DNA from: an uncultured Gammaproteobacteria bacterium
Lineage (GTDB): Bacteria > Patescibacteriota > Patescibacteriia > Magasanikbacterales > UBA922
NCBI GenBank assembly: GCA_964522405.1
Contig: CAZFTR010000001.1
Span: 116,686-180,685 of the forward strand
Length of the DNA stretch: 64,000 nt
Direction of reading: 5' to 3'
Position numbers and translations under genes: made by a program. Positions 12,042 to 62,051 of the stretch are shown in pieces. The notes under the pieces were generated by a model. It saw only the letters and a list, made by a program, of their open reading frames with translations. It made no database searches and had not been told where the DNA came from. The stretch's first letter is position 1, and every line of letters begins with the position of its first letter.

Positions 12042-12097
12042 CAAAAAAAGCAAGGTTTCTGGCCTTGTTTTATTATTTACGAGATAAATTGGGAGTC

Positions 12098-12136
12098 GGG
12101 CGACGCGTCTGAGGGGAACCTCAGACGCGTCGCCAC
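12098..12136. repeat. Perfect 16-bp GC-rich hairpin (GGCGACGCGTCTGAGG-GGAA-CCTCAGACGCGTCGCC) at the distal edge of island 2
   Basis: Read directly; marks the AT/GC boundary next to the tRNA-Leu. Confidence 0.6.
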
Positions 12137-12422
12137 ACTCGCCGTCCTTGCCTGCGCTGTTGCGCAGACCCGCGTGGTTGGGGCGCCGTGCACCCCTTCC
12201 TTGCCTGGCCGCCGAAGCGACCTGTCGGTGCCCGGTATGGTACCGGAGCACTCCTGGCGTCGAAGCGCTCATCGTGGTGTCTCGCCGTTGCGATTCACCG
12301 GAGTCGGCGCGCTGGCGTGCGCCATTCTCGAGATGACCCTTGCAGTCGGTGCCGTCAGCAGGTGACGGCGGTTCCGTTGCCTTGAGCGATCATCTGTGCC
12401 CCCGAAGAGGCCTTCGGCGTGG

Positions 12423-13286
12423 CTACCAGCTGAAGCAGAAGTCGCTGCTCGTCGCCGTGTAGCCCGCCTCGTCGCAGCAGCCCGCGGTCACCCCGTTCGG
12501 GTTGTCGCCGCCCGCGCCGTAGTCGGTGTTCACGTCCTCGTTGGTCGCCGCCGTCACGTTCTCCGCCGCCGCGGTGGCCGTCTGGTTCAGGTTGTGCGGG
12601 AAGTCGCCCGTCGCAGCCGTCGCCGTGTTGGTCATGCCCGAGTTGCCAGTCTCCACCGTCTCGCCGCCGCCCGCGCCGTAGTCGGTGTTGCCCAGGTTGG
12701 CCTTGTTCGCGTCGAAGTCCGCCGTACCGCCGGTGTCGTTCGCCGCGTTCGCGCCGTAGTCGGTGTTCACCACCATCTCGATCTGGGTCGCGCCGTAGTC
12801 CACCAGGAAGGGGATGTCCACAGCCAGCGTGGTGTCCACCCGCATCAGGATCGCGGTCGCGCCGTGCTCGCCGTAGTTGTCCAGCATGGTCGCCCAGATC
12901 GCCGTCGCGTTCTCCGTCGCTGCACCCGCGTTGTCGTGCATCCACTGCCAGCCGTCGAAGGCCACCGTCTCGCGCGCCGCGCCGTAGTCGGTGTTGGTGC
13001 CCATGATGAGGTGCGCCAGCTCGTCGTCGGTCAGGGCCGCCTCCCGGTTCATGGCGAACCAGTTGTTGGCCGCGTCCAGCAGAACCCGGTTGCTGTTGCC
13101 GTCGTCGACGAAGGTCAACAGCAGGTTGCCGTTGAAGTCCACGTCCACCGTCAGGGTGGTGTGGGCCGGGGCGTCGACCTGATCGATGGTCGGCGTGTCC
13201 GGCTCGGCAGCCGCGATGCTGGTGGGCAGCACCAGCAGAAGCAGGACCGCGAATGCGGCCGTCAGGAACGAAAGTCTCCGTCTCAT
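12423..13286 (-). CDS. Secreted protein with six copies of an N(T)DYGA motif; high-GC codon usage
   Basis: N-terminal signal peptide (MRRRLSFLTAAFAVLLLLVLPTSIAAAEP). Repeated GTNTDYGAA, NTDYGANA, NTDYGAGG (x2), VDYGAT, DNYGEHGA. C-terminal Cys cluster CCDEAGY...FCFSW. RBS GGAGG sits 10 nt before the ATG. Third codon positions are almost all G/C, unlike the flanking genes. Confidence 0.7.
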   Translation of the reverse strand: MRRRLSFLTAAFAVLLLLVLPTSIAAAEPDTPTIDQVDAPAHTTLTVDVDFNGNLLLTFVDDGNSNRVLLDAANNWFAMNREAALTDDELAHLIMGTNTDYGAARETVAFDGWQWMHDNAGAATENATAIWATMLDNYGEHGATAILMRVDTTLAVDIPFLVDYGATQIEMVVNTDYGANAANDTGGTADFDANKANLGNTDYGAGGGETVETGNSGMTNTATAATGDFPHNLNQTATAAAENVTAATNEDVNTDYGAGGDNPNGVTAGCCDEAGYTATSSDFCFSW

Positions 13287-13351
13287 CTTAGGAATTCCTC
13301 CACAAGGTCATCAACTTCCCGCGCCAGGTTTGGTTCGGGATTGCATTATCC

Positions 13352-13918: not shown

Positions 13919-13921
13919 ATG

Positions 13922-14318
13922 CCTTGTCCATTAAATAAGCCGAATTCTGTATCCTTGCAAGCAAGGTAATGATCATTTCTCTGGTTCCAGTGTTGCCACT
14001 AGAATCTAACGAGCTAACTTTTCGAATTCTGAAATTCAGAAAACGCTGCTCTTTCTCCAGGTAGGGTTTACCACCCTGACATAATGTCAGGTAGTATGGT
14101 AGCTTTTGACTCGAGATCAAAAACATCCATACTCTTTTCACCTTTCATTTTGCGAAGCAAAATTAGTATAGTCTCTGCGGCACTTTCCCGTCCATACTTG
14201 TCACCAAGCCGGAGGTGGGCGTTACCCACTACCATGACCCCGAAGAACTTCGGGGGGAGTTCGGACTTTCCTTCCAGCTCCCAAAAGGAGCCAGGCGATC
14301 ATTTATAATGAACAAGAC
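13922..14318 (-). ncRNA. rnpB: RNase P RNA (bacterial type)
   Basis: On the minus strand: GGAAGGAAAGTCCGAACTCC (CR-I/P4 5' strand), GGTGAAAAGAGTATGG, and ACAGAATTCGGCTTAT (CR-V/P4 3' strand). The 5' and 3' ends pair as P1 (GTCTTGTTCATTATAAAT with ATTTAATGGACAAG). Confidence 0.75.
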
Positions 14319-39200: not shown

Positions 39201-42200
39201 TGATCCATATAACAATGATCCAAAAGCAGGTTATCTACCACGGCTTGATGCCAGTGTTACTCTAGCCAATGGTTTTAAGAGTGAGTATGGACAAGTTTAT
39301 TGTAGCGAGGCATCAGGAAATGCCAAGGGTGCCTATGACATAGATGGATACAGAGAGATAACAAATGCAATTAACCAATCTACAGTTCCAAAATTTTCAG
39401 CCATATGTGATGGTAATCCAGATACTTTTGTTTGTAACAAGGACCTGTATAGTAATATGTTCAATGAGTATGGAGATTATATCTTTGATGAGAAAAAATG
39501 GGTAAGTATTACTGGTAATCCAGAGATAGCTTATGATGTTGGTGATGCAAATGCAGAATTTCCATTTACAGAAAAACTGCCTGTATTGCGTGATCCATTT
39601 AATGCTGGTTGGGGTGATAATTTTTCTTCTTTTAATACTTGGGAAGATGTGGAAGGATCCAAAACCACTATAATGCAAGGATTTTTTGAATGGCAAACTC
39701 GTCCACCGGCTACACCTGGTTCAGATGTGCTTACTGGCGCTAGTTTGTATCCTGATGATGACCAGAACAAGAATATATATAATTATCCGGATTTTGTCTA
39801 CTCCTTGGTTCAGCAATGGGCCTGGCATGGTGGTATGTATGGCAGAGGGTTGGCAGAAACCAAGGAATCCAAGAATATTATTTTGAATACCAAGAGTATA
39901 TCTGATCTGTGTGGAGATTTGATAGGTAAGGGGCAGCTATATACCGGTTGTGCAGACCTCTATAATTTTGCTGTAAATGCTCCAACTAAAACTCAGCAGG
40001 TTGAGTTATTAAAAGCTCTTCTTAACGCTCGAGTCAGTAGAATTTTAGCTGAAGATACCGAGGAAATTAAGCAGCAAGAAATAGTCAATCCAAATTCAAC
40101 TGTATTATTTACCTCAGCTCTTTATTTTAGGGATTACTTATATACTTCTTTGAAAAAAGTAGAAGAGATTGCGCCTGTAAAGGGTCTTGAAAGTAAAGGT
40201 CAGGATAAGAATAAATGGTATCTAGAAGATGAAGAGATGACCGAAGACTTGAATGGGGATGGTAAGGTTGATTATAAAGATATCACTGATCCTGAGTCTA
40301 TATTTTTGAGAGTAAGTTATGAACCGGTAGATTTTCATAGTTATACTCCGGGAACAATTGAAAAGGTCTTTGATTTTACAGGCGGCAGTAATAAAAGCAC
40401 AGATAAAGATGATCCAAATAATTATTTTTACAAGAGCTCAATTTGGGGGCATGCTACCAAGAAACTACGTGGTTATCATCCGGTCTTTTACAATTATGAA
40501 GCAGCAATAGAGGTTGTAGAAGATGAGATCAGTAAATTGCACTATGGACCAATGATGGCTCCAAATGGGATTGAAAGAGTTCTTACTATTGATTTTGATA
40601 CTCTTAATAATAGTCTGCCGCTTGAGTCAATCACAGCAAATGATGGGGTTTTGTACGATCTTAACTATTATTCAGAGGCTGTAAAAGGAGTTTATGTTTT
40701 TAAGGTAAGCCCAAGAACAGGTCCTAGAGCAGGTTGGTCACGATATATTATTATATCTATGGAAGACGGGGGATTTAGCGAAGATAAACCAGTGACTGAT
40801 TTGAGTCTTGATTTCTTTGTGGAGCTTCTTGACGAGTGGGCTGGAGATTCAAAATCCAAGTGGTCAAAGGGTGTGGATTGGATTGACGAGGATTTGGGAA
40901 ATAGATCACTTATTTGGGTCTGGGCTGATTTTGATGAGAAAGGTAATATGTCCGATGATTTCATAAAATCAAACTACCAAGCTTGGTATCAAAATACTAA
41001 AAGTATTTTTGTCTACAGTTCAGAGTTCAATGCCAAAGATGGAAAAACTCCTTTCTTGGCAGTTGTAGCAGAGACACATCCAAGATGTACAGAATTCCAG
41101 GTTGTTTATGATAGTGAAACCGAAGGGCTGGGCGGTTCAACTAACAAGGCTTGGACTGATAGAGTTTGGAATTATTCTAATTATCAACCGGGAACTACCT
41201 TTTTCTTTGGTAATAAATTAACTAAGCCGGCCTTTTCTCGACCTTTTGGTTCATTGCAATTAACTGCTGATTCTTTTGAAGGTACAAATGCATCAGGTTT
41301 GAGTTGGGAAGATGCCAGACGCAGATACACCTTTAGATCACCTGAGTTTGATGGTATACCTTATTCATGTGACGCAACAGCTCTAGAGTCAGAGCAGACC
41401 GCATTCAATCAAGGTAACTTTTTTAATGAAGGTTTGATGTATGATAATCCAGATTTTATTGGGCTTATAGAGTGGGGTGAACAAAAATGTATAGCGTCTT
41501 ATGGTGGAAATAATGAACTATATAACACCATGTCTTTTGTTGAGGCTGAAAATGGTATAGATATGCTATCTCAATTATTTAAAAAATCATTTACCTCTAT
41601 TAGAGCAAATGAACAGGGAGAAAATAAATTTGGTATTAAAGGAGCAATTGATCCACAGAATTCACTCTTTGTGAAGGAAGTTGGATTTGATGGTTCATCT
41701 ACTGCTGAGGCAGGTCTAATTCCTCCACAAATATATTCACTAAATCCAACCACTTGTTATGATTATACCGGTGGTAAAATTAATTGTACTATTGGAGAAG
41801 CAGATAATATAACCATAAACAGAAGAAATTTCATGTTAGAAGATTATGATGATGATGGATTTTATGATGAAGATCTAAATGGTGATGACTTGCCTGATCT
41901 GATAATTGCAGAAAATTCATTTACTGCTGTTGCTCATTTCTTTGCTTATGCTGATCATAACCGCATGCCTATTCGAAGAGTAATGGTTGATTGGGGAGAT
42001 GGAGATATTTCAAATCAAGATAGAAAGGGAATGTATAAGAATAGAAAACCATATTGTATTGGTGTTGGTAATGAGCAGAGTCCAGATATTGGAGAGTGTT
42101 CTCAGTCTGAGCAATTAACTTGTCTCAAAGATTCAGATTGTCCTTTGGCAGGAGAAACTTGTGATTTGAATGCAGCCAGGCATTTTGGAAATTCAGATAG

Positions 42201-42624
42201 AGCTTGTGTGCCGGAATATTTTGAATTTATGCATGGTTATTCTTGTTCGCAGTTTGATCTTCAATTGAGTGAGCTTGATAATGTTGATTTCTTGGAATAT
42301 ATGATTGAGTTTGATCAGCTTGATGAGTATCTGGGTAGGCCGGACGTAGAGCAAACTCTTAAGAATAGGGGTTATACTCCAGAAGTAAATACCAAGGTCT
42401 GTGTATTCCAGCCAAAAGTTCAGATATTGGATAATTGGGGGTGGTGTAATGGAACGTGTGATTATAAAGGTCCTGGAAGTGGGTGCTATTCCGAAGATGA
42501 GCTTAGTGGAGATTTTTGCGAAGTGAGTTCAGACAAGCCTTGGACAGGTTATGGTGAAGAGACAGTAGACAGTCTGGGTAATACGATTAGAAGTGGTTCA
42601 ATTATAGTAATTCCGACATCATAA
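33220..42624 (+). CDS. Giant (3134 aa) cysteine-rich predicted cell-surface protein
   Basis: Single uninterrupted 9.4-kb ORF with an N-terminal TM/signal (LIILLSSFVILVPVLAGLL), an Ala-rich linker, then a Cys- and Asp/Gly/Asn/Tyr-rich extracellular sequence with no catalytic motifs. Confidence 0.7.
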   Translation: MLIFMFKNQNRKLKTSLIILLSSFVILVPVLAGLLKIDQAHAQAAAAAKAAAKVATEAASGAANSAPAVPTHELSSVPKKMQKIEDTLDDTFLSTGLSALISGASYFLNRLAYDGARWIASGGKGQGALAFQDGFGEYILKVGGDSVADAVQQLGNPYGLNLCKPSNLDVQVYLQLGYRKVYDGLGGEGGPKPKCSWSELKDKIEFQTSGDGVRYFGDTIVEGFQNSFRVEDSDFGIALGAAGQLDRIYAQKQQEAEGEQLVGEGFKPLKSMLSGKTLTPAQIIKEEAKSITAKHQGQMTANQISGVYGSGSIEALVGAASIFLTTLISDLSKNILTDGWLTDPGSGGGGSLSSNTEVVINEFASAINQNRRAAENAFKFLFTAVPVKQSSSYPLLDDFASCPDDPALNHPKLTNCVIDRAFREAIDRGNQGSSLTIREAMLKENGELLHGGWPLISPLREEEHTEVKDCYRNGYCYSNIQKLRKARILPLGFEIAALRSDPDQPWTLKQVVDGFNDCAVDPDSGNIVQSSKKPFCHLIDPNWIIRLPDPRCESLVYGPNLISNAAPTRHSECADISTCLLEDENGQCIGQYGYCLKEKNVWNMPGQSCPAQFSTCDTYTNTKTGKIESFLSRTVDYDQCTSDAAGCRAYSIYQEDGAWRNSSQTDELLKTKGEAQTMYFGKLASHATCPIDVDLNADGCSAFLQVTFDSEVGNYQKIAAATPLYMQKAPNYLGCYDTDLSTKEIIDWPISETDLTLLTDRPEQCADYAQVCVEDEAGCRKYRAAESGVQDVVGIVGANSCPAECVGYDTFKQEESNFEPSIFPMYFIADGVGSRSCPGQYSSCSEFTNIGAAGEGGEELEYFVDIKYCEKPEEDNEKTYYSWEGSDSAGYVLKVHKMKQIDQEEYTSYIFKVGQAIQFNPGDNLSFYEIGSPAYAKDSVENLEEYYHACNEENYKQLINGENQLGDIDEGCAAIYDNDGNIYYRILSETVTVSDQCTPYRKTNTYLELDSDLNTSELCSYKSGLWSDANLSCERCFNGGEYLDGSCVYWTIPSESLSCQGPAGQENLYNGCRTYTGNAVNDPVQKIFFDFEPQPSDDDPDGLNNAKDGWSVGEITLDAQQVGLHSLQIDSGIVALDVPAEIFTEDKWYELTFWARSAVEQNLVVKLIQIAQDVGNFNSNPNIEGGEIPVKINTNWQEYKLGPVQFAGSTDLEVTAMFQAVSLGVSSAYSIDNVRIVEVPKFHRIKNSWQQKDTGPLGEEVVLDVPLLCDTTPTDPFPGEHLGCSAYTDKTADPDLPVYTSGFEKLCRVKAEGCRPIVDTFNTVSHEDPGNQDNTLTHVYNAWCEELAEDICQVKHIDQVLGECQVGKGKNGCYIPKIVIPAGVEFKDLLNTTDSTVVVPADTEETTPIYLTYNTEYACSSSFMGCKAGALEEQSLPTENQISYEFSEQMVYDNPTFYEQTLCKSEELACEEYRHGNSLAYFKDPYLTGSKLCKYRENLDSGENYGWFMEGIGKCTGTEDLCSSSDDCSEDVACDLEIDVPCYDNYLQAGGENGIWSNDALFHPITGESLYDGFVGLCESQYNNCTEYLDPQDSSGADPDGKPYYVIADNQLISGQSECAGQVSLHEGCVLFDQTDNPNKFYDSEASYKKSAATDNPKYQPVTPITSGNLDANVVLKVEANRSCSEWLSCKNSIKITDENGIPKNVCNEFKACKESDGSAGCANWAVDSAYETEPLTQEKYIKRDTSWYGEEYTGYSLFDKYQISSIAYVSVEDEPFSYMAYELHPGVAPNNNCIGQAAWSKCGFDNGGRCHNEKCIYTMSGPFLPDSDTKDEIVAELEGGTCKAFPEDSSPYDFSFAEQPTLHETAYDDGPDRYTFETKKKGYGGANICQSGENCSCEYKKIAYGNGTTDYLSYSEDKYAKGVCTGGDFAQKSCRINSDCGAGGSCSRITSIETHIGLRGLCMEYDLSRPIDKDKDIYPCLTWLPVDTAATVLDPYNNDPKAGYLPRLDASVTLANGFKSEYGQVYCSEASGNAKGAYDIDGYREITNAINQSTVPKFSAICDGNPDTFVCNKDLYSNMFNEYGDYIFDEKKWVSITGNPEIAYDVGDANAEFPFTEKLPVLRDPFNAGWGDNFSSFNTWEDVEGSKTTIMQGFFEWQTRPPATPGSDVLTGASLYPDDDQNKNIYNYPDFVYSLVQQWAWHGGMYGRGLAETKESKNIILNTKSISDLCGDLIGKGQLYTGCADLYNFAVNAPTKTQQVELLKALLNARVSRILAEDTEEIKQQEIVNPNSTVLFTSALYFRDYLYTSLKKVEEIAPVKGLESKGQDKNKWYLEDEEMTEDLNGDGKVDYKDITDPESIFLRVSYEPVDFHSYTPGTIEKVFDFTGGSNKSTDKDDPNNYFYKSSIWGHATKKLRGYHPVFYNYEAAIEVVEDEISKLHYGPMMAPNGIERVLTIDFDTLNNSLPLESITANDGVLYDLNYYSEAVKGVYVFKVSPRTGPRAGWSRYIIISMEDGGFSEDKPVTDLSLDFFVELLDEWAGDSKSKWSKGVDWIDEDLGNRSLIWVWADFDEKGNMSDDFIKSNYQAWYQNTKSIFVYSSEFNAKDGKTPFLAVVAETHPRCTEFQVVYDSETEGLGGSTNKAWTDRVWNYSNYQPGTTFFFGNKLTKPAFSRPFGSLQLTADSFEGTNASGLSWEDARRRYTFRSPEFDGIPYSCDATALESEQTAFNQGNFFNEGLMYDNPDFIGLIEWGEQKCIASYGGNNELYNTMSFVEAENGIDMLSQLFKKSFTSIRANEQGENKFGIKGAIDPQNSLFVKEVGFDGSSTAEAGLIPPQIYSLNPTTCYDYTGGKINCTIGEADNITINRRNFMLEDYDDDGFYDEDLNGDDLPDLIIAENSFTAVAHFFAYADHNRMPIRRVMVDWGDGDISNQDRKGMYKNRKPYCIGVGNEQSPDIGECSQSEQLTCLKDSDCPLAGETCDLNAARHFGNSDRACVPEYFEFMHGYSCSQFDLQLSELDNVDFLEYMIEFDQLDEYLGRPDVEQTLKNRGYTPEVNTKVCVFQPKVQILDNWGWCNGTCDYKGPGSGCYSEDELSGDFCEVSSDKPWTGYGEETVDSLGNTIRSGSIIVIPTS

Positions 42625-42666: not shown

Positions 42667-42697
42667 TTTAAAATATTTTTGATTTTTTTAATAAAAA

Positions 42698-42798
42698 GGG
42701 CCGTGCCGAAGCGCGTCCACGAGTTCACCGAAGTGAGACTTGTGGGCGCGCTTGGCTTGGCGTGCGACTGCTGAGAAAACGAGTTCGACTGCCGTGTA
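42698..42798 (-). other. Conserved GC-rich structured 3' element, copy A (nested about 60-nt helix with a CGAA tetraloop)
   Basis: gccgaagcgcg / ccacgag / tcac-CGAA-gtga / cttgtgg / cgcgcttggc nested pairing; about 75 nt identical to copy B at 43657-43761. Confidence 0.5.
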
Positions 42799-43326
42799 CT
42801 ACGGCTTGAGCTCCAGCGTGTAGTCGGGGCCGTCGTTGTCGAAGATCGTGATCTCGATTCCCTCGGAGGTCTTGATGACCTCGTAGTACCAGCCTGCCGG
42901 CTTGTCGAGGGGGAAGACCACAGCGGCCTCCTCGGGGTTGTCGTGCCAGGTGATCAGCGGACCGGTGATCATGGGCTTCTTGCCGAAGCCGATCATGGTC
43001 ACCTCACAGGTGTGACCACCGAACCCGTTCTCGATCATCTTGGTCGTGATCTCCTCGCCCCAGCCCTTGAAGTGCTTCCACTTGCCCGCGATGTTCGGGC
43101 AGATGTCCACCACGGGGATGGGCTCAGGGGCAGGCTCTTCTTCCGGGGTGGGCTCTTCAGGTCGCGGGATCGTGTCCGGCTCGACGAACCGGGGCTGTTG
43201 GGCTGTGTCTTCTGGGATCTGATCTCGGTTAGTGCTCCGAGGGTAGTTGGAGCTACAGCTGGTAAAAAGAAAAGCCACGAGCGTGGCCACGAGAATGAGG
43301 ATGTTTTTCCTCTCCATGGTGGCCAC
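42799..43326 (-). CDS. Lipoprotein paralog A with a conserved C-terminal domain; high-GC codons
   Basis: Lipobox LFTSC, Pro/Glu-rich linker, conserved block VVDICPNIAGKWKHFKGWGEEI...GFGGHTCEV...WHDNPE...GWYYEV.KTSEGIEIT. RBS AAGGAGGTG upstream. Confidence 0.7.
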   Translation of the reverse strand: MATMERKNILILVATLVAFLFTSCSSNYPRSTNRDQIPEDTAQQPRFVEPDTIPRPEEPTPEEEPAPEPIPVVDICPNIAGKWKHFKGWGEEITTKMIENGFGGHTCEVTMIGFGKKPMITGPLITWHDNPEEAAVVFPLDKPAGWYYEVIKTSEGIEITIFDNDGPDYTLELKP

Positions 43327-43500
43327 CTCCTTGCAGTAGCAGCCGGAGCTATAGTGGAATTTCCACTACACTTCTAGCTACCACTAGCAGGAGTTTTTTG
43401 TCGCACGCTATAGATCTTGCCTTTTGGCTAGGTTTAGCCAAGCAGACAAAGATATTGAAAAGAGCTTTTAGTCATCAAAGACTGATAAATATTAGACTAT
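43327..43500 (-). promoter_or_regulatory. Conserved 5' leader, copy A, with palindromes (TAGTGGAA-A-TTCCACTA; GCTAGTGGTAGC; TTGGCTAAACCTAGCCAA) and an upstream TTGACA-17-TCTAAT promoter-like site
   Basis: Nearly identical to 44278-44450. The palindromes were read directly; the promoter call is weaker (the -10 is non-consensus). Confidence 0.45.
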
Positions 43501-43616: not shown

Positions 43617-43656
43617 GTTTAAGTAATTTTTCACATTTTTTAAAAAATCATTTAAG

Positions 43657-43761
43657 GGGCCGTGCCGAAGCGCGTCCACGAGTTCACCGAAGTGAGACTT
43701 GTGGGCGCGCTTGGCTTGGCGTGCGACTGCGAGGAAAAAACGAGAGTTCGACTGCCGTGTA
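43657..43761 (-). other. Conserved GC-rich structured 3' element, copy B
   Basis: See copy A. Confidence 0.5.
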
Positions 43762-44277
43762 CTACGGCTTGAGCTCGGCCCAGATGTCGGGCTTGGCCTC
43801 GTTGTCGAATCGCGTGATCTCGATCCCCTCGGAGGTCTTGACGACCTCGTAGTACCAGCCCACCGGAGCCGGAATCGGGAAGACCACGGCGGTCTTCTCG
43901 GGGTTGTCGTGCCAGGTTGAAGCCGGACCGGGGAACATCGGCTTCTTGCCGAAGCCCGTGATGGTGACCTCGCAGGTGTGGCCACCGAACCCGTCCTCGA
44001 TCATCTCGGTCACGATCTCCTCACCCCAGCCCTTGAAGTTTTTGTACTTGCCCGCGATGTTCGGGCAGATGTCCACCACGGGGGTGGACTCTTCGGGGGC
44101 AGGATCCGCGGGCTTGTCGAGCCGCGGGGTCTCGACCGGCTCGACGAACCGGGGTTCCTGTGCGGCGTCTTCCGGGACGTAGTCCCGATCTCCCCCACGC
44201 TGAGGGGTGAAGCCGCAACCGGTGGAAAGCAAAGCCACGAGCGTGGCGACCATGAGCAGATTGCTCTTCTTCATCAT
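43762..44277 (-). CDS. Lipoprotein paralog B (about 65-70% identical to A); high-GC codons
   Basis: Lipobox LSTGC, Pro-rich linker, and the same conserved C-terminal domain as copy A. Confidence 0.7.
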   Translation of the reverse strand: MMKKSNLLMVATLVALLSTGCGFTPQRGGDRDYVPEDAAQEPRFVEPVETPRLDKPADPAPEESTPVVDICPNIAGKYKNFKGWGEEIVTEMIEDGFGGHTCEVTITGFGKKPMFPGPASTWHDNPEKTAVVFPIPAPVGWYYEVVKTSEGIEITRFDNEAKPDIWAELKP

Positions 44278-44450
44278 GGCGCCACCTCCTTGCAGTAGCA
44301 GCCGGAGCTATAGTGGAATTTCCACTACACTTCTAGCTACCACTAGCAGGAGTTTTTTGTCGCACGCTATAGATCTTGCCTTTTGGCTAGGTTTAGCCAA
44401 GCAGACAAAGATATTGAAAAGAGCTTTTAGTCATCAAAGACTACTATCCA
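44278..44450 (-). promoter_or_regulatory. Conserved 5' leader, copy B
   Basis: See copy A. Confidence 0.45.
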
Positions 44451-53341: not shown

Positions 53342-54300
53342 GTATGGATGAGTACCAAGATAAAAAAATTTTTGTAACTTCTTATAAAAATCCTGATTTA
53401 GATGGTTTTGGTTCTGCATATGCTTATGCAGAATTTTTAAATTTACAAGGAATTGATGCTGTTCATGGAGTTTTTGGAACTCCTAGAAATGAAGTCGGAT
53501 TTGTTTTGAAAGAATTTGATATTAAATATGATCAAAAATCAGAGAATCTACTAGGAGACTATCCAGAAGTGGTTTTGGCTGATGCCAGTTCATTGCCGGG
53601 GTTGCCTTCGCAAATTAATCCCAAGAGTGTGGTGGAAATCATTGATCACAGAAAAGTACATGAGGCAGAAAATTTTCCAAATGCAAAGGCACAATTAGAG
53701 TTGGTAGGAGCTGCTGCTACACTTATTGCTGAGAAATTTTACCATGCAGGTATAGAGCCATCAAAAGAATCTGCAGTCTTATTATTTTTTGGTATTGTTT
53801 CAAATACTATTAATTTTAAAAACAATGTAACCACAGATCGAGATAGGAAGATAGGAGAGTGGTTAAAAGTTTTTTTTGAATTCAAAGAAGGTCAAATAGA
53901 TAGATTTTTTGAGAGTAAAGTAAAAATATCTGACTCAGTTGAGAAGAGTTTGGATTATAAAATCATAAGCTATGCTGTACCCTTTGATTTTGGAGGCAAT
54001 AGTATTGGTATAGCACAGCTTGAAATGGTTGATGTTGAAAATTTTATAAATTCAAATTTGGATGAAATTGAAAAAAGATTAGAGGAATTAAAAAAAGATC
54101 GTGATATAGATCTAGTATTTTTAACTTGTGTTGATCTTAAGGAATATTTTAATTTGTATGTTTGTTTTGAAGAAAAAATGAAAACCATTTTGTCTACTAC
54201 TCTTGGTTTGGAATTCACTGGGGCTCTAGCAAAAAAAGATGGAATTTTAATGAGAAAGGAAATTGCTCCAATTCTAAAAGAGTATTTAGAAAAAAATTAA
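53329..54300 (+). CDS. DHH-family phosphoesterase (NrnA-like)
   Basis: N-terminal DHH motifs (KIFVTSYKNPDLDGFGSAYAY ... LADAS ... IIDHRKVHE) and a C-terminal DHHA1-like region. Confidence 0.7.
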   Translation: MVVVGMDEYQDKKIFVTSYKNPDLDGFGSAYAYAEFLNLQGIDAVHGVFGTPRNEVGFVLKEFDIKYDQKSENLLGDYPEVVLADASSLPGLPSQINPKSVVEIIDHRKVHEAENFPNAKAQLELVGAAATLIAEKFYHAGIEPSKESAVLLFFGIVSNTINFKNNVTTDRDRKIGEWLKVFFEFKEGQIDRFFESKVKISDSVEKSLDYKIISYAVPFDFGGNSIGIAQLEMVDVENFINSNLDEIEKRLEELKKDRDIDLVFLTCVDLKEYFNLYVCFEEKMKTILSTTLGLEFTGALAKKDGILMRKEIAPILKEYLEKN

Positions 54301-55265
54301 TAAACTTCCAGCAAAACAATCTCTGGAAGATTAAACAGTCTCGCTCTTGCTCCACTTTCTCCAACTCCACTAGTGACAAAAACTTTTAGACTGTCATGTT
54401 CATACCAACCTTTGTACCATTTATCTGGTATTACGCCATCAACTTTTCCAATTGGTCCAAGAAATGGAAGTCTAATTTGCCCGCCATGAGTATGGCCAGC
54501 AAGCATTAAATCAATACCGTGCTTAGAGGCTTCCCAGGTTGCAGCAGGATTGTGAACCAGTCCTATTACGGCTGTTTCTTTTTGTAGATTTTCAAGGACA
54601 GAAAAATCAGTATTTCCTGACCACCAAGCATCTGATCCATAGAGAAAGAATTCCTGGTCTTGTACTTGGATTTCTTCTAATTCATTTACTAAATAGCGTA
54701 CCCCAAGCTCTTCCATAGCTTTTTTGGTTTTTTGGCTGTTGTCCGGATAACGAGCAGATTTATCATTGATAGATCCAGGGCCCCAAATACCATATTCATG
54801 ATTTCCATGTACTGCATAAACCGGAATTTTTTTTGCCAGCTCTTCGAGAGGTTTAAGATACTTTGTTTCATCTGTTTGTTGATCATATAAATTGTTATCA
54901 ATTTGATCTCCAGCTATTAAAACCAGATCAGGATCTGATTTAAGAATTTTCCTGACAGTCCTTTCTACAAATTGATCTTTTTTGTAAGGTCCGACCTGAT
55001 AATCTGCAACCAAAGCTATTATAACTGGTTTTTCAATGTACTCGAGGTCAATTTTTTCTTTTTTTACAATTATAATTTTTGGTTCTATAAAACTTCCCCA
55101 AACTAGAGTGATAGTTCCAATCAAGAAAAAGCTTGCCATCAGATGAAGAAGCTTTTTTTGATTTTTTGATTTTCTAGCAACCAAAAACAAAATCATGGCT
55201 GGCAAGGCAGTCATGATTATTCCGAGAGCTATGATTAGGTCAAATTGGCTATGAGAGAAGTTCAT
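54297..55265 (-). CDS. Membrane-anchored metallophosphoesterase (calcineurin-like)
   Basis: N-terminal TM helices; GDQIDN, GNHEY and GHTHGGQ metallophosphatase motifs. Confidence 0.8.
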   Translation of the reverse strand: MNFSHSQFDLIIALGIIMTALPAMILFLVARKSKNQKKLLHLMASFFLIGTITLVWGSFIEPKIIIVKKEKIDLEYIEKPVIIALVADYQVGPYKKDQFVERTVRKILKSDPDLVLIAGDQIDNNLYDQQTDETKYLKPLEELAKKIPVYAVHGNHEYGIWGPGSINDKSARYPDNSQKTKKAMEELGVRYLVNELEEIQVQDQEFFLYGSDAWWSGNTDFSVLENLQKETAVIGLVHNPAATWEASKHGIDLMLAGHTHGGQIRLPFLGPIGKVDGVIPDKWYKGWYEHDSLKVFVTSGVGESGARARLFNLPEIVLLEVY

Positions 55266-55419
55266 GATATTTTTTAAGTTTTTGTAATTATATTTGAAAT
55301 TTTATGTTTCGTCAAAGGGGTTGTTTTTTTATCTTTTTTATGTTAATATTTTTTTGCATGAAAGAGAACGTTAGCGTTTCTCAGAGGACCATAACCGGCT
55401 AAAGAGAGCTAAGACGGAT

Positions 55420-55600
55420 TTTTTTCAGCATCATGCTGGGGGAGGTCACTTGTGACCATGATTTTCGACGCAAAGCGTGGGTCGAAGAAATAAGGGTTGC
55501 GCCGACCAGAACCGGAACAAGGGGGAACGGGGGTTGCCACCGGATATGAAATCTCGACTTGCAAAAGTCGTAGACGAACAACCGAGTGGTCACCCCCAAG
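55420..55600 (-). ncRNA. Candidate structured GC-rich ncRNA or cis-regulatory leader (unclassified)
   Basis: About 180 nt, GC-rich within an AT-rich locus. The minus-strand RNA begins GGGGGUGACCACUCGG and folds back on CCGGUGGCAACCCCC. Further hairpins are UUCGACCCACGC..GCGUCGAA, GGUCACAAGUGACC and CAGCAUGAUGCUG. There is no credible ORF. It lies between the tRNA-Leu terminator and the phosphoesterase promoter region. Confidence 0.4.
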
Positions 55601-55602
55601 AC

Positions 55603-55630
55603 CCAATAAAATAAAACCGCATAAAGCGGT
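55603..55630. terminator. Hairpin terminator (AAAACCGCATAAAGCGGTTTT) downstream of tRNA-Leu(CAA)
   Basis: Perfect stem with flanking A/T runs. Confidence 0.6.
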
Positions 55631-55638
55631 TTTATTAG

Positions 55639-55720
55639 TGCCGAAGAAGGGAATCGAACCCTTACTCCCGAAGGAACACGATTTTGAGTCGTGCGCGTCT
55701 ACCAGTTCCGCCACTTCGGC
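55639..55720 (-). tRNA. tRNA-Leu (anticodon CAA), type II
   Basis: Acceptor GCCGAAG/CTTCGGC, anticodon stem CACGA/TCGTG with loop CTCAAAA, long variable arm, T arm AGGG-TTCGATT-CCCT. Confidence 0.8.
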
Positions 55721-55799
55721 ATATCTGAAATATTTGCTTAGTAGAGCATATTATATTCTATATTGTTGATTTTGTCAATTTGCGATATAATATAGATAT

Positions 55800-57442: not shown

Positions 57443-57532
57443 ATTTAACCACCCCTTGTTCCCCTCCCTGAAAAAGGGGGGCCATGCCACGTCAGTCGCG
57501 ACTGACGTGGTTAGAGGGTGGTTCACCTTAGA
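57443..57532. terminator. Nested palindromic structure between convergent parB and rel (inner CCACGTCAGTCGCGACTGACGTGG; outer AACCACCC/GGGTGGTT)
   Basis: Perfect 12-bp inner inverted repeat with an 8-bp outer pairing. GC-rich. Confidence 0.5.
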
Positions 57533-59023
57533 TTATTTCTTGTTAGGCAATACAGATTTGAGCCAGCGAGTTAGAGCTTTCTTTTCTTCTTGTTTGAGCT
57601 CTGTACGAATATGGTATCTGGCTGTGTGAGTTTTTACAAAGTTTAACCAATCTTGGCTTGGACCTTTTCTATTCTTGTCAGTATTTATATCCACCACATC
57701 TCCGTTTTTGAGTTCTGTATTTAGTGGTACCATTTTATCATTTACTATGGCGCCGGTGCATTTGTTGCCAATTTCTGTATGTATATGATAGGCAAAATCA
57801 ATTGGTGAAGCTCCTTCAGGTAGATCTATAACATCGCCTTTTGGAGTAAATACAAATATTCTGGTTTGGAGGAAATCAACTTTCATTTCTTCTAAATCTG
57901 AAAGTCTGTTTAAAATATCTTTTTGAATTTCAGCTAGCTCTTGTGCCCATTTTACTTCGCGTTTTGGTAAGCGAGAACCATGTTCATCATAATGCCAGTG
58001 TGCTGCAACACCGTACTCAGCTTCTTCATGCATCTCTACAGTTCTAATTTGAAATTCGATAATTTCCCCATCTTCTCCAAAAATAGTGGTATGTAGAGAT
58101 TGATAGCCATTTGGTTTTGGTTGAGAAATATAATCTTTGATTCGTCCTTTTACCGGTTTCCAGATATTGTGAAGTATTCCAAGTGTGGCATAACAATCAG
58201 CAATAGAGCTTACAATAATTCGAATGGCTACCATGTCATAAATTTTAGCAAGTTGGTTATCTTTTCTCAGGAGTTTTTGATATAGACTATAAAGACGTTT
58301 ATTTCTGCCATAAATTGAAACCGGTTTTAGTTTTGATTTGGTTAATTCTTTTTTAGCTTTTTCAATTGTCTTTTTAAAATATTCTTCTTTTCCTTTTAGT
58401 TTGTCATCTCTGATTTTCTTCACTCGTCTAAATTCTTTGGGATAAACATATTGAAAAGAAAGATCTTCAAGTTCTCCTTTCATCTCGTCCATGCCAAGTC
58501 GGTTGGCAATCGGCGCGTAAATCTCCAGGCTTTCAAGGGCAATTCTATATCTTTTTTGAGGAGGTAGTGCTGAGAGTGTTCGTAGATTGTGAATTCTGTC
58601 AGCAAATTTAATAATCATTACCCGGACATCCTCTGCCATGGCTAAAAACATTTTTCGCAGATTTTCTATGTATCTTTCAACGCCACGATATTTCAGTTTT
58701 CCAAGTTTGGTAATTCCTTCCACCATTGAAGCAATTTCATTCCCAAAATTTTTCTCTAGTTCTTCTAAAGTCACTTCTGTATCTTCTGGTACATCATGAA
58801 GAAGGGTGGCGCAGATAATCACAGGATCAATTTTTTGATTTGCCAGATAATGAGCAGCTTCCAGTGGATGAATTATATAGGGTTCGCCTGATTTTCTGGT
58901 TTGTCCTTTGTGTGCTTCTTTGGCAAAATCATAAGAAATGCGCACTAAGTCAGTATCAGCTTTGGGATGATATTTTTTGATTTTTTCTATAAGTCCGTCA
59001 ATTGTCAGTTTCTTTTTTGCCAT
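57533..59023 (-). CDS. Short bifunctional RelA/SpoT-homolog (HD hydrolase plus (p)ppGpp synthetase, 496 aa)
   Basis: HD motif HPLEAAHYLA...LLHDVPEDT; synthetase motifs DMVAIRIIV, YISQPKPNGYQSLHTTIFG, EFQIRTVEMHEEAEYGVAAHWHYDE. Too short to carry the full TGS/ACT regulatory tail. Confidence 0.8.
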   Translation of the reverse strand: MAKKKLTIDGLIEKIKKYHPKADTDLVRISYDFAKEAHKGQTRKSGEPYIIHPLEAAHYLANQKIDPVIICATLLHDVPEDTEVTLEELEKNFGNEIASMVEGITKLGKLKYRGVERYIENLRKMFLAMAEDVRVMIIKFADRIHNLRTLSALPPQKRYRIALESLEIYAPIANRLGMDEMKGELEDLSFQYVYPKEFRRVKKIRDDKLKGKEEYFKKTIEKAKKELTKSKLKPVSIYGRNKRLYSLYQKLLRKDNQLAKIYDMVAIRIIVSSIADCYATLGILHNIWKPVKGRIKDYISQPKPNGYQSLHTTIFGEDGEIIEFQIRTVEMHEEAEYGVAAHWHYDEHGSRLPKREVKWAQELAEIQKDILNRLSDLEEMKVDFLQTRIFVFTPKGDVIDLPEGASPIDFAYHIHTEIGNKCTGAIVNDKMVPLNTELKNGDVVDINTDKNRKGPSQDWLNFVKTHTARYHIRTELKQEEKKALTRWLKSVLPNKK

Positions 59024-59088
59024 ATCTTTTTAGGGTAACATGTTTTTTTATACTTGACAAATGAGCTTTCTTATGCTACTATAGGGTC

Positions 59089-59160
59089 GGTGATATAAAG
59101 GCAGGACCTATATGTCCTGAGATAACCTCAGCCAACTTGGCTGGGGTTTTCTTATTTTAT
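59089..59160 (+). ncRNA. Candidate small RNA 1 (promoter TTGACA-17-TACTAT; internal hairpin GGACCTATATGTCC; terminator CAGCCAACTTGGCTG + T-run)
   Basis: The promoter, about 70-nt body and intrinsic terminator were all read directly. No ORF. Confidence 0.35.
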
Positions 59161-59237
59161 GCTAAAATTAGCATTTTTTTAGTTTTTTGAAGTAGATATC
59201 AAATAGACAAAAGAAATTTCTATGTTATAATGCCTGC

Positions 59238-59328
59238 GTGGCGGGTGAGGGGCCTTTGTATCACCTTAGGCATTGAGGTTACCCTCCTTGCCACATAAAA
59301 AAACCCAATTTTGTTGGGTTTTTTATTT
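59238..59328 (+). ncRNA. Candidate small RNA 2 (extended -10 TGTTATAAT; body GCCTGCGTGGCGGGTGAGGGG...CCCTCCTTGCCAC; terminator shared with topA)
   Basis: TAGACA-16-TGTTATAAT promoter-like site. The GC-rich body pairs with itself (GTGGCGGGTGAGGGG with CCCTCCTTGCCAC). It is followed by AAACCCAATTTTGTTGGGTTTTTT. Confidence 0.3.
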
Positions 59329-61633
59329 ATTTGGGATCTTCTTCTTTTTCTGTCTTTTTTGTAAATTTTCTCCGTCCTTTTGGTTTGGCATCTTTGAGTA
59401 TCTCTTCACATTCTTCCAGGGTTAGTTTTTTGGGATTTGCCTCTTTGGGGATTTTTCCATTTTTTTCACCATCTGTCACATATGGTCCATATCTTCCATT
59501 GAGAACTTGAATTCCTTTTTCCGGGAAATCTTGAATGATTTTTTCTGCTTCTGCTTTTTTCTTAGCTGTTATTACTTCCAGAGCTCTTTCAAGTGTAATT
59601 GTGTAGGGATCATCATCTTTTGTGGAATAAAATTTTGATTTTACTTTGACATAAGGACCAAAACGACCAATATTGGCAATTATATCTTCTCCTTCTTGAT
59701 CTTGTCCAAGTGTCCTTGGTAAGGAAAGGAGATGAAGTGCATCTTCAAGAGTTAAGCTGTCAATTGTTTGTCCTTTTTGTAATGATGCAAATCTGGGTTT
59801 TTCTTCGTCGTCTTTGGTTCCCAACTGAACAAATGGACCGTATCTTCCAATACGTGCTGAAATAGGTTTTTTTGTTTTCGGGTCAATTCCAATTTCTCTG
59901 CTATGAAGTACATCTTCTTTTTTTATATTTTCTTCTGCTTTTTCAATTGTGCTGTGAAATGGCTTGTAGAATTCTGAAATAATCGGTTGCCATTCTTTTT
60001 CACCTTCAGCAATATGGTCTAGATCCTGTTCCATCTTTGCTGTGAATTCATAATTAAGAATGTCTCCAAAATGTTTAACCAGAAGATCGTTTACCACCAT
60101 AGCTATATCTAATGGCTTTAAGCGTTTATTGTCATCACGTTCTACATATTTTCTAGCTTCTATGGTTGCTATTGTCGGTGCATAAGTAGAAGGTCTACCA
60201 ATTCCATGCTCTTCCAAAACTTTTACTAGGGTAGCGTCAGAATAGCGGGCAGGGGGTTGGGTAAAATGTTGTTCCGGTTTTAGTTCAGTACAATCCAGCT
60301 GATCTTCTTTTTTTATTTCCGGCAACATTTCTTCTTTTACTGACTCAGGATAAAGTTTTAACCAACCATCAAAAAGCATAGATTGTCCATTTGCGCGGAA
60401 CATATACTTTTTTGATTTGATATCTATATTGGTTTTGTTAAGTCTTGCTTCTGCCATTTGAGTAGCCATGGCTCGTTTCCAAATTAGACTGTATAGTTTG
60501 AATTGATAAGGGTCAAGAAAAGCTTCAATTGATTCAGGTGTTAGATCTGCATGAGTTGGACGGATAGCTTCGTGAGCTTCTTGTGCTCCTTTAGATTTTG
60601 ATTTGTAAACCCTTGGCTTTGTAAGTGTATATTTATCTCCATATTCAGATTTTACAAATTGATTACTTTCCTTTAGAAACTTATCTGAGAGATTTGTAGA
60701 GTCAGTTCTCATATAAGTTATAAGACCAACTTGTCCGCGGGTGCCAAGTTTTATTCCTTCATAGAGTTGTTGGGCAACTCGCATGGTCTGTTTGGAGGAA
60801 TAACCAAATTTTTGATTGGATTGCTGCTGCAGTGTGGAAGTTCGGTAAGGTGGGGGAGGAGTACGTTTGGTTTCTTTTTGTTCGATACTGTCTACTGTAT
60901 ATTTTGCTCCATCAAGATCTTTTAAAATTTGATCAACTTGTTCTTTGTTTTCCAGATCAAGTTTTTTTAGTTTTTTGTCATCAATACTGTGCAGCTTGGC
61001 AGGAAAAATATGATCTATATTTTTTTCTTTGAACATGCCCTCTAGGCTCCAGTATTCGTCTGAAACAAATGCTTCGATTTCTCTTTCTCGTTCTACGATG
61101 AGTCTAACTGCTACTGATTGGACTCGGCCGGCAGAAAGACCTCTGGCAACTTTTTTCCAAAGAAGAGGAGAAAGCTCGTATCCAACCAATCTATCAAGTA
61201 TTCGTCTGGCTTGCTGTGCATCTACAAGTTTCTGATCAATATGTCTCGGTTCTTGAAGAGCTTGCTCAATTGCATGTTTGGTAATTTCATGAAAAACTAT
61301 ACGTTTGCTTGATTTTGGTTTAACTCCTAGAATTTCAGCAAGATGCCAACTAATGGCTTCTCCTTCTCGGTCTTCATCTGTGGCAAATATAATTTTGTCA
61401 CATTTTTTGGCTACTTCTTTTAGTGTTTTAACTTGTTTTGATTTATCTTTTGGAACTCTATAAGTTGGTTCAAAAGTCCCACCTTCTATATCTATGCCCA
61501 TTTTACTTTTGGGAAGGTCTCGAAGATGACCAAAAGAGGACTCTACTTTGTAGTCCTTGCCAAGAAATTTACTAATTGTTTTTGCTTTTGTTGGTGACTC
61601 AACAATTACAAGAGTTTTACTCATATGGCGCAC
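59327..61633 (-). CDS. topA: DNA topoisomerase I
   Basis: N-terminal TOPRIM (LVIVESPTKAKTISKFLG), active-site region, C-terminal topo-I repeats with a Lys-rich tail. Confidence 0.9.
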   Translation of the reverse strand: MRHMSKTLVIVESPTKAKTISKFLGKDYKVESSFGHLRDLPKSKMGIDIEGGTFEPTYRVPKDKSKQVKTLKEVAKKCDKIIFATDEDREGEAISWHLAEILGVKPKSSKRIVFHEITKHAIEQALQEPRHIDQKLVDAQQARRILDRLVGYELSPLLWKKVARGLSAGRVQSVAVRLIVEREREIEAFVSDEYWSLEGMFKEKNIDHIFPAKLHSIDDKKLKKLDLENKEQVDQILKDLDGAKYTVDSIEQKETKRTPPPPYRTSTLQQQSNQKFGYSSKQTMRVAQQLYEGIKLGTRGQVGLITYMRTDSTNLSDKFLKESNQFVKSEYGDKYTLTKPRVYKSKSKGAQEAHEAIRPTHADLTPESIEAFLDPYQFKLYSLIWKRAMATQMAEARLNKTNIDIKSKKYMFRANGQSMLFDGWLKLYPESVKEEMLPEIKKEDQLDCTELKPEQHFTQPPARYSDATLVKVLEEHGIGRPSTYAPTIATIEARKYVERDDNKRLKPLDIAMVVNDLLVKHFGDILNYEFTAKMEQDLDHIAEGEKEWQPIISEFYKPFHSTIEKAEENIKKEDVLHSREIGIDPKTKKPISARIGRYGPFVQLGTKDDEEKPRFASLQKGQTIDSLTLEDALHLLSLPRTLGQDQEGEDIIANIGRFGPYVKVKSKFYSTKDDDPYTITLERALEVITAKKKAEAEKIIQDFPEKGIQVLNGRYGPYVTDGEKNGKIPKEANPKKLTLEECEEILKDAKPKGRRKFTKKTEKEEDPK

Positions 61634-61745
61634 AGCATAATTGAAATTGAGAAAATTGTCAAATATCAGGCGAAAAATTTTATTTCTTATTCAATATTTT
61701 CAATACATTATTCTTTCATTTTATCGGCTGCTCCAACACCAAATC

Positions 61746-62051
61746 CTACTTCAATTCCTGTTTTTTGTCTCTGGCAGTTCCGCTTATTTGTCTTTTGTAT
61801 AAGCCTGTACCATGATCTGCGATTGTGTATACATTCTCTGAATATAGGCTTGTTTCAAGATCATGCTCAGAAAATGCCTGTGTTAGTGCTTCTACAAAAG
61901 CTCTATTGCCAGGTAGAAAATTACCTGCTGCGTCATCTTCGGCATAGTCATCTCCCAGTGTTTGAGATGCTTCTAAAAAAGCTGTTTGTACTCTGTCATG
62001 AACTTCAGCCTCTACTTTATTTATTTCTGCTGCGTGATGTTTGAATGTCAT
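61746..62051 (-). CDS. Small acidic hypothetical protein
   Basis: 101-aa ORF between folC and topA, co-directional with both; no recognisable motif. Confidence 0.35.
   Translation of the reverse strand: MTFKHHAAEINKVEAEVHDRVQTAFLEASQTLGDDYAEDDAAGNFLPGNRAFVEALTQAFSEHDLETSLYSENVYTIADHGTGLYKRQISGTARDKKQELK

Follow-up and report, generated by a model that had tools for sequence, protein, structure and literature searches.

Between the genes for tRNA-Leu(CAA) and a membrane metallophosphoesterase (MPE), the AT-rich genome studied here carries a GC-rich segment that folds into a series of hairpins. The question raised by this locus is what the segment is. It was investigated within a 64,000-nt stretch of DNA (hereafter the window; GC content 36.5%), in which the following features were located:

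55750-55778, minus strand: promoter of tRNA-Leu(CAA), TTGACA-17-TATAAT, 12/12 matches in the consensus scan.
55638-55720, minus strand: tRNA-Leu(CAA) gene, reported by ARAGORN and matching the Rfam tRNA model with 60.4 bits.
55610-55636, both strands: bidirectional intrinsic-terminator-like hairpin AATAAAACCGC/GCGGTTTTATT, 11 bp, 100% complementary, with A-tract and T-tract on each side.
~55400-55608: GC-rich segment, GC 0.52-0.57.
55522-55604, plus strand: H1, long imperfect hairpin of ~85 nt, from folding.
55464-55486, plus strand: H3, hairpin UUCGAC-GCAAAGCGUGG-GUCGAA, from folding and the inverted-repeat listing.
55444-55457, plus strand: H4, perfect palindrome GGTCAC-TT-GTGACC, from the palindrome scan and folding.
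55426-55438, plus strand: H5, perfect palindrome CAGCAT-C-ATGCTG, from the palindrome scan and folding.
55364-55382, plus strand: H6, weak hairpin GAGAACG-UUAG-CGUUUCUC, at the AT-rich edge of the element.
55287-55315, minus strand: the MPE gene's own promoter, TTGACG-17-TATAAT, 11/12 matches.
54297-55265, minus strand: membrane MPE gene, recognized by its ORF, a Pfam Metallophos match (1.5e-18) and orthologs.
55266-55637: whole tRNA-to-MPE spacer or insert, ~370 bp, lineage-specific by comparison with relatives.

The four flanking genes encode DHH/DHHA2, MPE, ParA, and ParB proteins. The MPE start codon lies at 55265, and the AT-rich stretch between H6 and this start holds the MPE promoter. 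An independent Logan assembly contig was identical to the window across the whole GC-rich segment. As the preliminary description of this DNA had it, the tRNA gene and then a terminator precede the element on the minus strand, the terminator being the 11-bp hairpin with T-runs at 55610-55636. This hairpin was absent from the list produced by the consensus terminator scan; its maximal stem takes in the T-run. It probably terminates transcription of the tRNA and would do the same for a plus-strand transcript of the element.

The GC enrichment described for the tRNA-MPE spacer was confirmed, with GC of 0.52-0.57 at 55400-55608 compared to 0.365 for the window. The segment had been delimited as 55420-55600; structure was indeed present there, but the structured stretch reaches ~55356-55608. 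Its GC content resembles that of the native structural RNAs (0.56-0.63 for the tRNAs, a peak of 0.55 for RNase P RNA) and is below that of the high-GC coding islands (0.67-0.73). The hairpins whose sequences had been quoted were all present on re-reading and folding. Both the MFE and the centroid structures, on either strand, consisted of a row of independent hairpins. The pair GGGGGUGACCAC...GUGGCAACCCCC forms a 70-nt hairpin of 26 bp and -34 kcal/mol, which a GGG/CCC closing helix extends to ~85 nt. The resulting H1 is composed of this closing helix, a G5:C5 helix, a purine-rich 8x7 internal loop, and a CGACUU-GCAA-AAGUCG apex. Its apical loop, of GNRA type (GCAA) when read on the plus strand, becomes UUGC on the minus strand, where H1 has 26 bp including G.U compared to 23 bp on the plus strand. 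H3 was more stable on the plus strand (-11.4 kcal/mol compared to -6.9 kcal/mol on the minus strand). H4 and H5 are perfect 6+6 palindromes with spacers of 1-2 nt, and their RNA stems are limited to 5 bp with 4-nt and 3-nt loops, respectively. Folded as RNA, the 5-bp stem of H4 closes a CUUG tetraloop if the plus strand is read and CAAG if the minus strand is read. H5 can be extended on the plus strand by a U7/G5 wobble helix, giving 14 bp across 55417-55447.

Folding of the element exceeds chance. Measured against dinucleotide-preserving shuffles, the MFE z-scores at 55395-55605 were -3.48 for the minus strand and -4.08 for the plus strand, and the plus strand of 55352-55645, terminator included, reached -5.41. 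The earlier statement that the segment is highly structured therefore agrees with a fold that beats shuffled sequence at z = -3.5 to -5.4. In a scan of the whole window with 200-nt windows, 55405-55604 on the plus strand (z = -4.8) ranked 10th among 638 window-strand combinations, and the minus strand of the same interval fell outside the top 40. The windows ranked above the element were tRNAs, together with terminators and UTRs of GC-rich cassettes.

Next, we considered from which strand an RNA would be made. The element had been assigned to the minus strand; this assignment is probably incorrect, because the loops, the excess of G over C, the z-scores, and the shared terminator favour the plus strand. 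Both perfect hairpins with a 5-bp stem and a 4-nt loop carry loops of stable tetraloop classes (GCAA, a GNRA loop, and CUUG) on the plus strand only, an argument that rests on two loops; among all such hairpins in the window, loops of stable classes were found in 7 of 131 on the plus strand and in 1 of 131 on the minus strand. The plus strand of the element is A-rich with more G (0.30) than C (0.22), like RNase P RNA and all four tRNAs, and the minus strand is C- and U-rich. The plus strand had the lower MFE in every sub-domain and more G.U pairs, with the exception of H1, where pairing was slightly richer on the minus strand. A plus-strand transcript would have its 3′ end at the 55610-55636 hairpin, with the U-tract UUUUAUU, in common with the convergent tRNA gene. 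Each of the four other GC-rich islands in the window is likewise convergent with a native gene and has its 3′ end beside the terminator of that gene; the convergent arrangement of the element matches theirs. The plus-strand promoter candidates were TTGTTT-17-TAATAT with an upstream TG at 55321-55349 (7/12 matches, by eye) and ATGATA-19-TATATT (9/12 matches). These best candidates thus match at 7-9 of 12 positions, compared to 10-12 of 12 for the recognized promoters in the window and in relatives. Two features of the minus strand were also counted against the plus strand: the strong upstream promoter of the tRNA and the unpaired C-rich, anti-Shine-Dalgarno-like runs. Taken together, the strand cues favour the plus strand for the putative RNA.

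The element could instead be a minus-strand RNA, made by read-through as a trailer of the strongly transcribed tRNA-Leu or serving as the leader, possibly a riboswitch, of the MPE mRNA. The tRNA is driven by a perfect consensus promoter on this strand, and the relatives have the MPE gene immediately after the tRNA, probably within one transcript. H1 pairs more richly in this orientation, as noted above. Known Gram-positive sRNAs have anti-Shine-Dalgarno seeds, which the unpaired C-rich runs of the minus strand, including ACCUCC, resemble. Against a trailer, transcription from the tRNA promoter, the sole promoter upstream of the element on this strand, would meet the canonical terminator hairpin and its long U-tract before reaching the element. 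Against a leader, the promoter of the MPE gene at 55315-55287, with 11 of 12 matches, intervenes between element and gene, so that the 5′ UTR measures ~15 nt; because this promoter is downstream of the element, the element is not part of the MPE 5′ UTR. No expression platform was found between them, neither a terminator nor a structure sequestering a Shine-Dalgarno sequence: the only candidate was H6, a poor terminator with -5.3 kcal/mol on the minus strand followed by UUUCAU, hence only by UUU, and the MPE gene itself lacks a Shine-Dalgarno sequence. Nothing equivalent was present upstream of the MPE orthologs, and no riboswitch or leader family matched at E≤10. Moreover, the minus strand has more C than G and is pyrimidine-rich, unlike native RNAs, its loops UUGC and CAAG are unremarkable, and its z-score is weaker than that of the plus strand. 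We regard a minus-strand RNA of either kind as unlikely.

These results bear on two known systems. The cyclic-dinucleotide riboswitches (c-di-GMP-I/II, c-di-AMP ydaO, and cGAMP), which had been suggested as models for a switch of the MPE gene, share with the element a position upstream of a phosphoesterase-family gene. The element differs from them in giving no match at E≤10, in lying upstream of the gene's promoter, in having no expression platform, and in being unconserved, and the suggestion could not be upheld. A role of the element as a cis-regulatory leader of the MPE gene is not supported. The second system is 3′ETS-leuZ of E. coli, the 3′ external transcribed spacer of a tRNA-Leu operon that acts as an sRNA. 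The element also lies directly downstream of a tRNA-Leu gene when read on the strand first assigned to it. Unlike 3′ETS-leuZ, which is short and located between the tRNA and the operon terminator, the element comes after the terminator, is ~200 nt long, and has strand cues pointing the opposite way.

Membership in known RNA families was examined with covariance models. A cmscan search of the whole window against Rfam 15 at gathering thresholds reported RNase P RNA and four tRNAs and nothing in the segment. With permissive filters and E≤10, the 511-nt slice 55250-55760 gave tRNA-derived matches only. The Rfam/Infernal check proposed in the preliminary description was thereby carried out, and no family matched the segment even at E≤10. 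This covers the c-di-GMP-I/II, c-di-AMP, and cGAMP riboswitches, 6S, SRP, Y-like, tmRNA, and T-box RNAs, group I and II introns, HEARO, and small ribozymes, for none of which membership was detectable.

A 6S-, SRP- or Y-like identity had been put forward earlier; it was abandoned, as there was no covariance-model match and the fold is multi-hairpin rather than rod-like. For 6S RNA, the rod fold, with an end-closing stem, a large central bubble, and a terminal stem, was missing. SRP RNA (4.5S) gave no match, and by eye the internal loops of H1 lack the conserved SRP helix 8 motif. A K-turn in H1 was also rejected by eye, as its GA positions do not fit the K-turn consensus. No Rfam match supported a bacterial Y RNA (YrlA), and no Ro gene (rsr) is among the four flanking genes. 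A tmRNA piece and a T-box were rejected for want of a covariance-model match, and ARAGORN reported no tmRNA. Group I introns are common in Patescibacteria tRNA genes (PMC13011429). Intron_gpI did not match at E≤10, and the tRNA-Leu gene is intact and shares no significant similarity with the element. A partial duplication of tRNA-Leu was rejected as well, with an alignment score no better than that of shuffles.

Coding potential was assessed in all six frames. The absence of an ORF with coding character, as described earlier, was borne out: Pfam gave 0 matches in any frame of the segment, none of its ORFs is among the called genes of the protein collection, and a phmmer search with the 66-aa minus-strand ORF returned 0 matches among 1.84 billion proteins. 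The element might nevertheless encode a small protein, either by this 66-aa ORF or by plus-strand ORFs of 38-45 aa or 11-13 aa, or it might be a type I toxin-antitoxin-like locus with a convergent antisense RNA ending at the same terminator. On the minus strand, two frames run through the element without a stop codon, GC at the third position is highest in the 66-aa frame (0.62), this ORF has a partly hydrophobic stretch, and on the plus strand GGAGGU occurs 5 nt upstream of a GUG. Type I toxin loci are typically orphan, with heavy mRNA structure, which was also counted in favour of such a locus. The signals are countered, however, by their character: open frames are expected in GC-rich sequence, the codon-phase GC is only weakly periodic (0.46/0.48/0.62), and the hydrophobic stretch is short and proline-rich. 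Besides the null results in the protein collections, back-translated multi-pattern scans of JGI metagenomes and IMG/VR viral contigs with the two open frames yielded no confirmed relative. A protein-coding or toxin-antitoxin function is therefore very unlikely.

No second copy of the element was found by blastn-short in the whole window or in 9.6 kb of extra flank from Logan contigs. In distant blastn searches, phages and plasmids yielded only chance matches, 27-42 nt long, and neither blastn nor tblastx detected anything similar to the element in 84 fetched loci (all but L001). Three DNA patterns, built on the H1 loop and stem anchors (viral contigs) and on the closing-helix anchor (metagenomes), returned 0 matches or 4 A-rich chance matches without hairpins. 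In the window and ten related loci, a covariance model (R1) built from the single H1 sequence matched nothing but H1 itself. Scanning genome contigs with the MPE protein revealed no relatives, and in the scan with the MPE alignment the matches listed were mostly from unrelated phyla, the patterns being too generic. The element has no covariation support because neither a homolog nor a second copy was found in the collections searched. Watson-Crick blast of the element against the rest of the window likewise found no extended complementarity; on this basis, an RNA from the element would be slightly more likely to bind a protein or act as a scaffold than to work by antisense pairing.

To place the spacer in its genomic context, ten related MPE loci (L002, L004-L007, L090-L092, L096, and L097), with MPE proteins 36-56% identical to that of the window, were compared. 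The best non-self MPE homolog among 5.8 billion proteins was 56% identical, and the lineage is therefore without a close sequenced relative. Going by the names attached to the MPE homologs, the window belongs to a Candidatus Magasanikbacteria-like member of the candidate phyla radiation (CPR). The arrangement ParB-ParA<>tRNA-Leu(CAA)-MPE is conserved among the relatives. In seven of the ten loci, tRNA-Leu(CAA) is 1-100 nt from the MPE gene (~1 nt in L002 and L097, ~10 nt in L006, 22 nt in L090, 35 nt in L004, 49 nt in L091, and 100 nt in L092), two carry other cargo at the junction, and in one the tRNA is absent from this position. The cargo in L007 is a 101-aa ORF of 53% GC with a Shine-Dalgarno sequence and a terminator, and that in L005 is a 430-aa ORF; both are unrelated to the element. 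In L096, the closest relative, the MPE gene has a different upstream neighbour. Homology of the element to this upstream region was rejected: the two could not be aligned, and the region, in which a coding gene probably ends, is unstructured (z = +1.2 and -0.1). The proposed check for conservation upstream of MPE orthologs thus turned out negative, with no counterpart in any of the ten loci. The missing Rfam match and the missing conservation are both outcomes that the preliminary description had named as speaking against its proposal.

Two of the relatives showed further features at this site. In L092, a GIY-YIG gene, a partial duplication of the tRNA 3′ half, and GC palindromes flank the tRNA. 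L004 has two tandem copies of the tRNA 5′ half with an inserted GC hairpin. We read these features as signs of mobile-DNA activity around tRNA-Leu(CAA). From the short spacers and varied cargo of the relatives, the ~370-bp tRNA-to-MPE spacer is taken to be a lineage-specific insertion at a tRNA-adjacent hotspot. Ancestrally, the tRNA and the MPE gene probably shared one transcript.

Such an insertion need not have a function. The element could be what foreign or mobile DNA left behind at the tRNA-Leu(CAA)-adjacent hotspot, a remnant or cargo-less scar without function, its hairpins being left-over terminators, UTRs, or recombination palindromes of a decayed cassette. The comparison of loci fits this well, with the element absent from ten of ten related loci, seven of which have the tRNA within 1-100 nt of MPE, with unrelated cargo at the same junction in L007 and L005, and with the tRNA duplications and GC hairpins or palindromes of L092 and L004 just described. 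The window itself contains four other GC-rich islands with orphan genes, and none of the searches run returned a homolog or second copy of the element, a complete orphan that also lacks a strong promoter of its own. The element does not look like these islands, however. Its GC content of 0.52-0.57 differs from their 0.67-0.73, their coding DNA folds ordinarily and the element unusually well, and it has no similarity to them or to the inserts of the relatives. It also lacks terminal inverted repeats and a target duplication beyond chance, and its strand-asymmetric, RNA-like loops and composition would be unexpected in decaying junk. We consider a remnant the main rival explanation, somewhat unlikely in itself but almost as probable as the reading preferred below.

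A MITE or another palindromic mobile element was not supported. There were no terminal inverted repeats, as the candidate arms were only AT-rich and of low complexity or 71% complementary, and in the test for a target-site duplication one 12-nt direct repeat with a single mismatch was found, about the level of chance. The sequence was present in a single copy in the 64-kb window and the 9.6-kb flanks. GC-rich palindromic insertions in AT-rich genomes are known as the GC clusters of yeast mitochondria and as the Rickettsia palindromic elements. Repetitive hairpin-forming elements are also reported from sponge mitochondria (PMC2800124). The element is similar in being a GC-rich, hairpin-forming insertion in an AT-rich genome that is missing in relatives, and it is unlike these multi-copy families in having one copy in 73.6 kb of genome and no terminal repeats. 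Its locus carries other GC palindromes in relatives L004 and L092.

The neighbouring parAB genes suggest yet another function, in which the element would act as DNA, as a cluster of palindromic protein-binding sites of operator or partition type. It contains several perfect 6+6 palindromes with spacers of 1-2 nt, too short for RNA loops, and lies <200 bp from the parA promoter region; neither the window nor the relatives contain a canonical parS site. The palindromes are all different, though, and hence not repeated sites for one protein, none resembles parS (a parS site in the element was rejected, with no match in the window), and the segment is missing in relatives that retain parAB. The 85-nt imperfect hairpin with RNA-type loops would also be left unexplained. 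A set of DNA sites is accordingly a most improbable reading.

The reading that we tentatively prefer, with chances that we put short of even, is an orphan small-RNA unit on the plus strand, carried on the ~370-bp lineage-specific insertion at the tRNA-adjacent hotspot. The tRNA-Leu(CAA) and MPE genes abut in most related Magasanikbacteria-like genomes, and the insertion, with the GC-rich core (~55356-55608) as part of it, would have pushed them apart here. The insert would constitute a small, self-contained transcription unit on the plus strand, with an AT-rich upstream region followed by a multi-hairpin RNA of 200-290 nt. The putative RNA would end, like the transcript of the convergent tRNA gene, at the bidirectional terminator, and the product would be an orphan, stand-alone structured small RNA rather than an MPE leader. 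In favour of such an RNA we counted the fold excess, the native-RNA-like GC content, the plus-strand cues, the terminator, and the lack of a protein signal. Counted against it were that both strands fold well, as expected of DNA palindromes, that the 1-2-nt spacers in two palindromes are more typical of DNA sites, and that the element has neither a convincing plus-strand promoter nor a homolog in the collections searched. From these sequence features we infer transcription of the element, its strand, and any activity of the RNA. Of the stand-alone RNA suggested in the preliminary description, the possibility of an orphan RNA is retained, but not the 6S, SRP, or Y identity or the minus strand.

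A precedent for the proposed layout exists, as convergent sRNA genes can share a bidirectional intrinsic terminator, for example RNA I and RNA II of the Enterococcus par locus. Similarly, the plus-strand transcript of the orphan unit would converge on tRNA-Leu and end at a common terminator, in a compact unit of ~300 nt. Unlike the par locus, the element has no recognizable promoter, toxin ORF, repeat-based interaction sites, or similarity in sequence or to a covariance model. GC-IGR and DIMPL screens select long, GC-rich, structured intergenic regions and accept motifs only with structure conservation and covariation among homologs (PMC11109978, PMC8723152). The element is like their candidates, being located in a long intergenic region with GC far above the average of an AT-rich genome and being structured without coding signal. 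It is unlike the accepted motifs in having no homolog in the searched collections and would stay an unranked orphan IGR.

A bolder proposal, which we consider quite unlikely, is that the element is the founding member of a new class of structured ncRNA in a deeply isolated Magasanikbacteria-like lineage or, more broadly, the RNA-only member of a set of orphan GC-rich cassettes. Such cassettes may be self-contained and acquired convergently behind native terminators by this genome of 36.5% GC. The other GC-rich cassettes code for orphan proteins, secreted ones or lipoproteins, and their leaders are conserved and highly structured.

To our knowledge, next to nothing has been described of ncRNAs in CPR bacteria other than tRNA, rRNA, and RNase P. 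If transcribed, the element would be among the very few candidates for a regulatory or structural small RNA in these bacteria. An orphan candidate sRNA is in itself unsurprising, and the compositional mosaic of the genome is the more unusual feature: an AT-rich CPR genome with sharply bounded, GC-rich orphan cassettes is possibly of greater interest. The tRNA-Leu(CAA) junction, which collects different cargo in different lineages, may likewise outrank the element in interest.

Four sharply bounded islands of high GC content, with maxima of 0.67–0.73 against a genome of 36.5% GC, were found in the window:

High-GC islands and their open reading frames (ORFs), window coordinates
1–333, ORF on the minus strand: island 1, 66 aa
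about 12090–13345, ORF on the minus strand: island 2, 287 aa, with a signal peptide and NTDYGA repeats
about 42697–43370 and about 43656–44335, ORFs on the minus strand: islands 3 and 4, 175 and 171 aa, lipoprotein-like

All four islands are convergent with a native gene and adjoin the terminator of that gene. In each of them, an AT-rich consensus promoter lies upstream of the ORF, whose start is either leaderless or preceded by a strong ribosome-binding site, GGAGG. Island 1 was also present in the Logan assemblies (assemblies of public sequencing runs) of two runs. None of the three island ORFs tested contained a Pfam domain, and the lipoprotein-like ORFs had no homolog among 5.8 billion proteins apart from one another. 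Directly past island 2 lies the RNase P RNA:

13920–14315, minus strand: bacterial RNase P RNA class A (161.9 bits, E 2.4e-50)

The two lipoprotein-like ORFs form tandem cassettes with the following untranslated segments:

43327–43480 and 44278–44440, minus strand: 5' leaders
42697–42798 and 43656–43761: 3' UTRs

The ORFs are paralogs with only 66% amino-acid identity, whereas the 3' UTRs are near-identical between the cassettes. The 5' leaders, each ~150 nt long, are also near-identical and highly structured (z -4.8 and -6.7). No Rfam match to them was obtained at E<=1. We regard this leader as a candidate cis-regulatory leader. Immediately upstream of the cassettes, a giant ORF of 3134 aa (33220–42624, plus strand) encodes a Cys-rich protein with an N-terminal signal-like segment.

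Although the adjacent genes parA and parB are present, the whole window contains no match to the canonical parS sequence TGTTTCACGTGAAACA when up to 3 mismatches are allowed, nor was one found within 3 mismatches in the related loci L002 and L004–L008. The cumulative GC skew reaches a plateau at about 57500–62000, and the genes converge here, being oriented mostly on the plus strand over 1–57.4 kb and on the minus strand over 57.5–63.4 kb. The plateau and the switch to convergent gene orientation suggest that this region, beside parAB, is replication terminus-like.

Several loci of the membrane metallophosphoesterase (MPE) gene from related genomes carry fragments or repeats near tRNA-Leu(CAA):

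L004 3680–3880: 5' half of tRNA-Leu(CAA) in two tandem copies of ~100 nt; in both, the D-loop is interrupted by a GC-rich hairpin and the copy ends in a T-run
L092 2020–2060 and 2400–2490: odd features around tRNA-Leu(CAA)
L002 3720–3830 and 3880–3905, L097 85–105: CTGAGT/ACTCAG array (L002) and DnaA-box-like motif (L002 and L097)

In L092, the tRNA is preceded by a 78-aa GIY-YIG gene and followed by a duplicate of the tRNA 3' half, and the palindrome CCTGCCGGCAGG with its flanks occurs in two copies. The CTGAGT/ACTCAG repeats form a long palindrome in the ParA-tRNA spacer of L002, and the inverted DnaA-box-like motif TTATCCACTGGATAA lies just upstream of the tRNA in both L002 and L097.

Only 1–50 nt separate the 3' end of tRNA-Leu(CAA) from the start codon of MPE in most relatives. 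Such close junctions occur in L002, L004, L006, L090, L091, and L097, where neither a terminator nor a promoter was found between the two genes. This spacing, uninterrupted by either element, implies that tRNA-Leu(CAA) and MPE would be co-transcribed as a tRNA-mRNA in most relatives. In the window lineage, the close arrangement is replaced by a terminator and a separate promoter.
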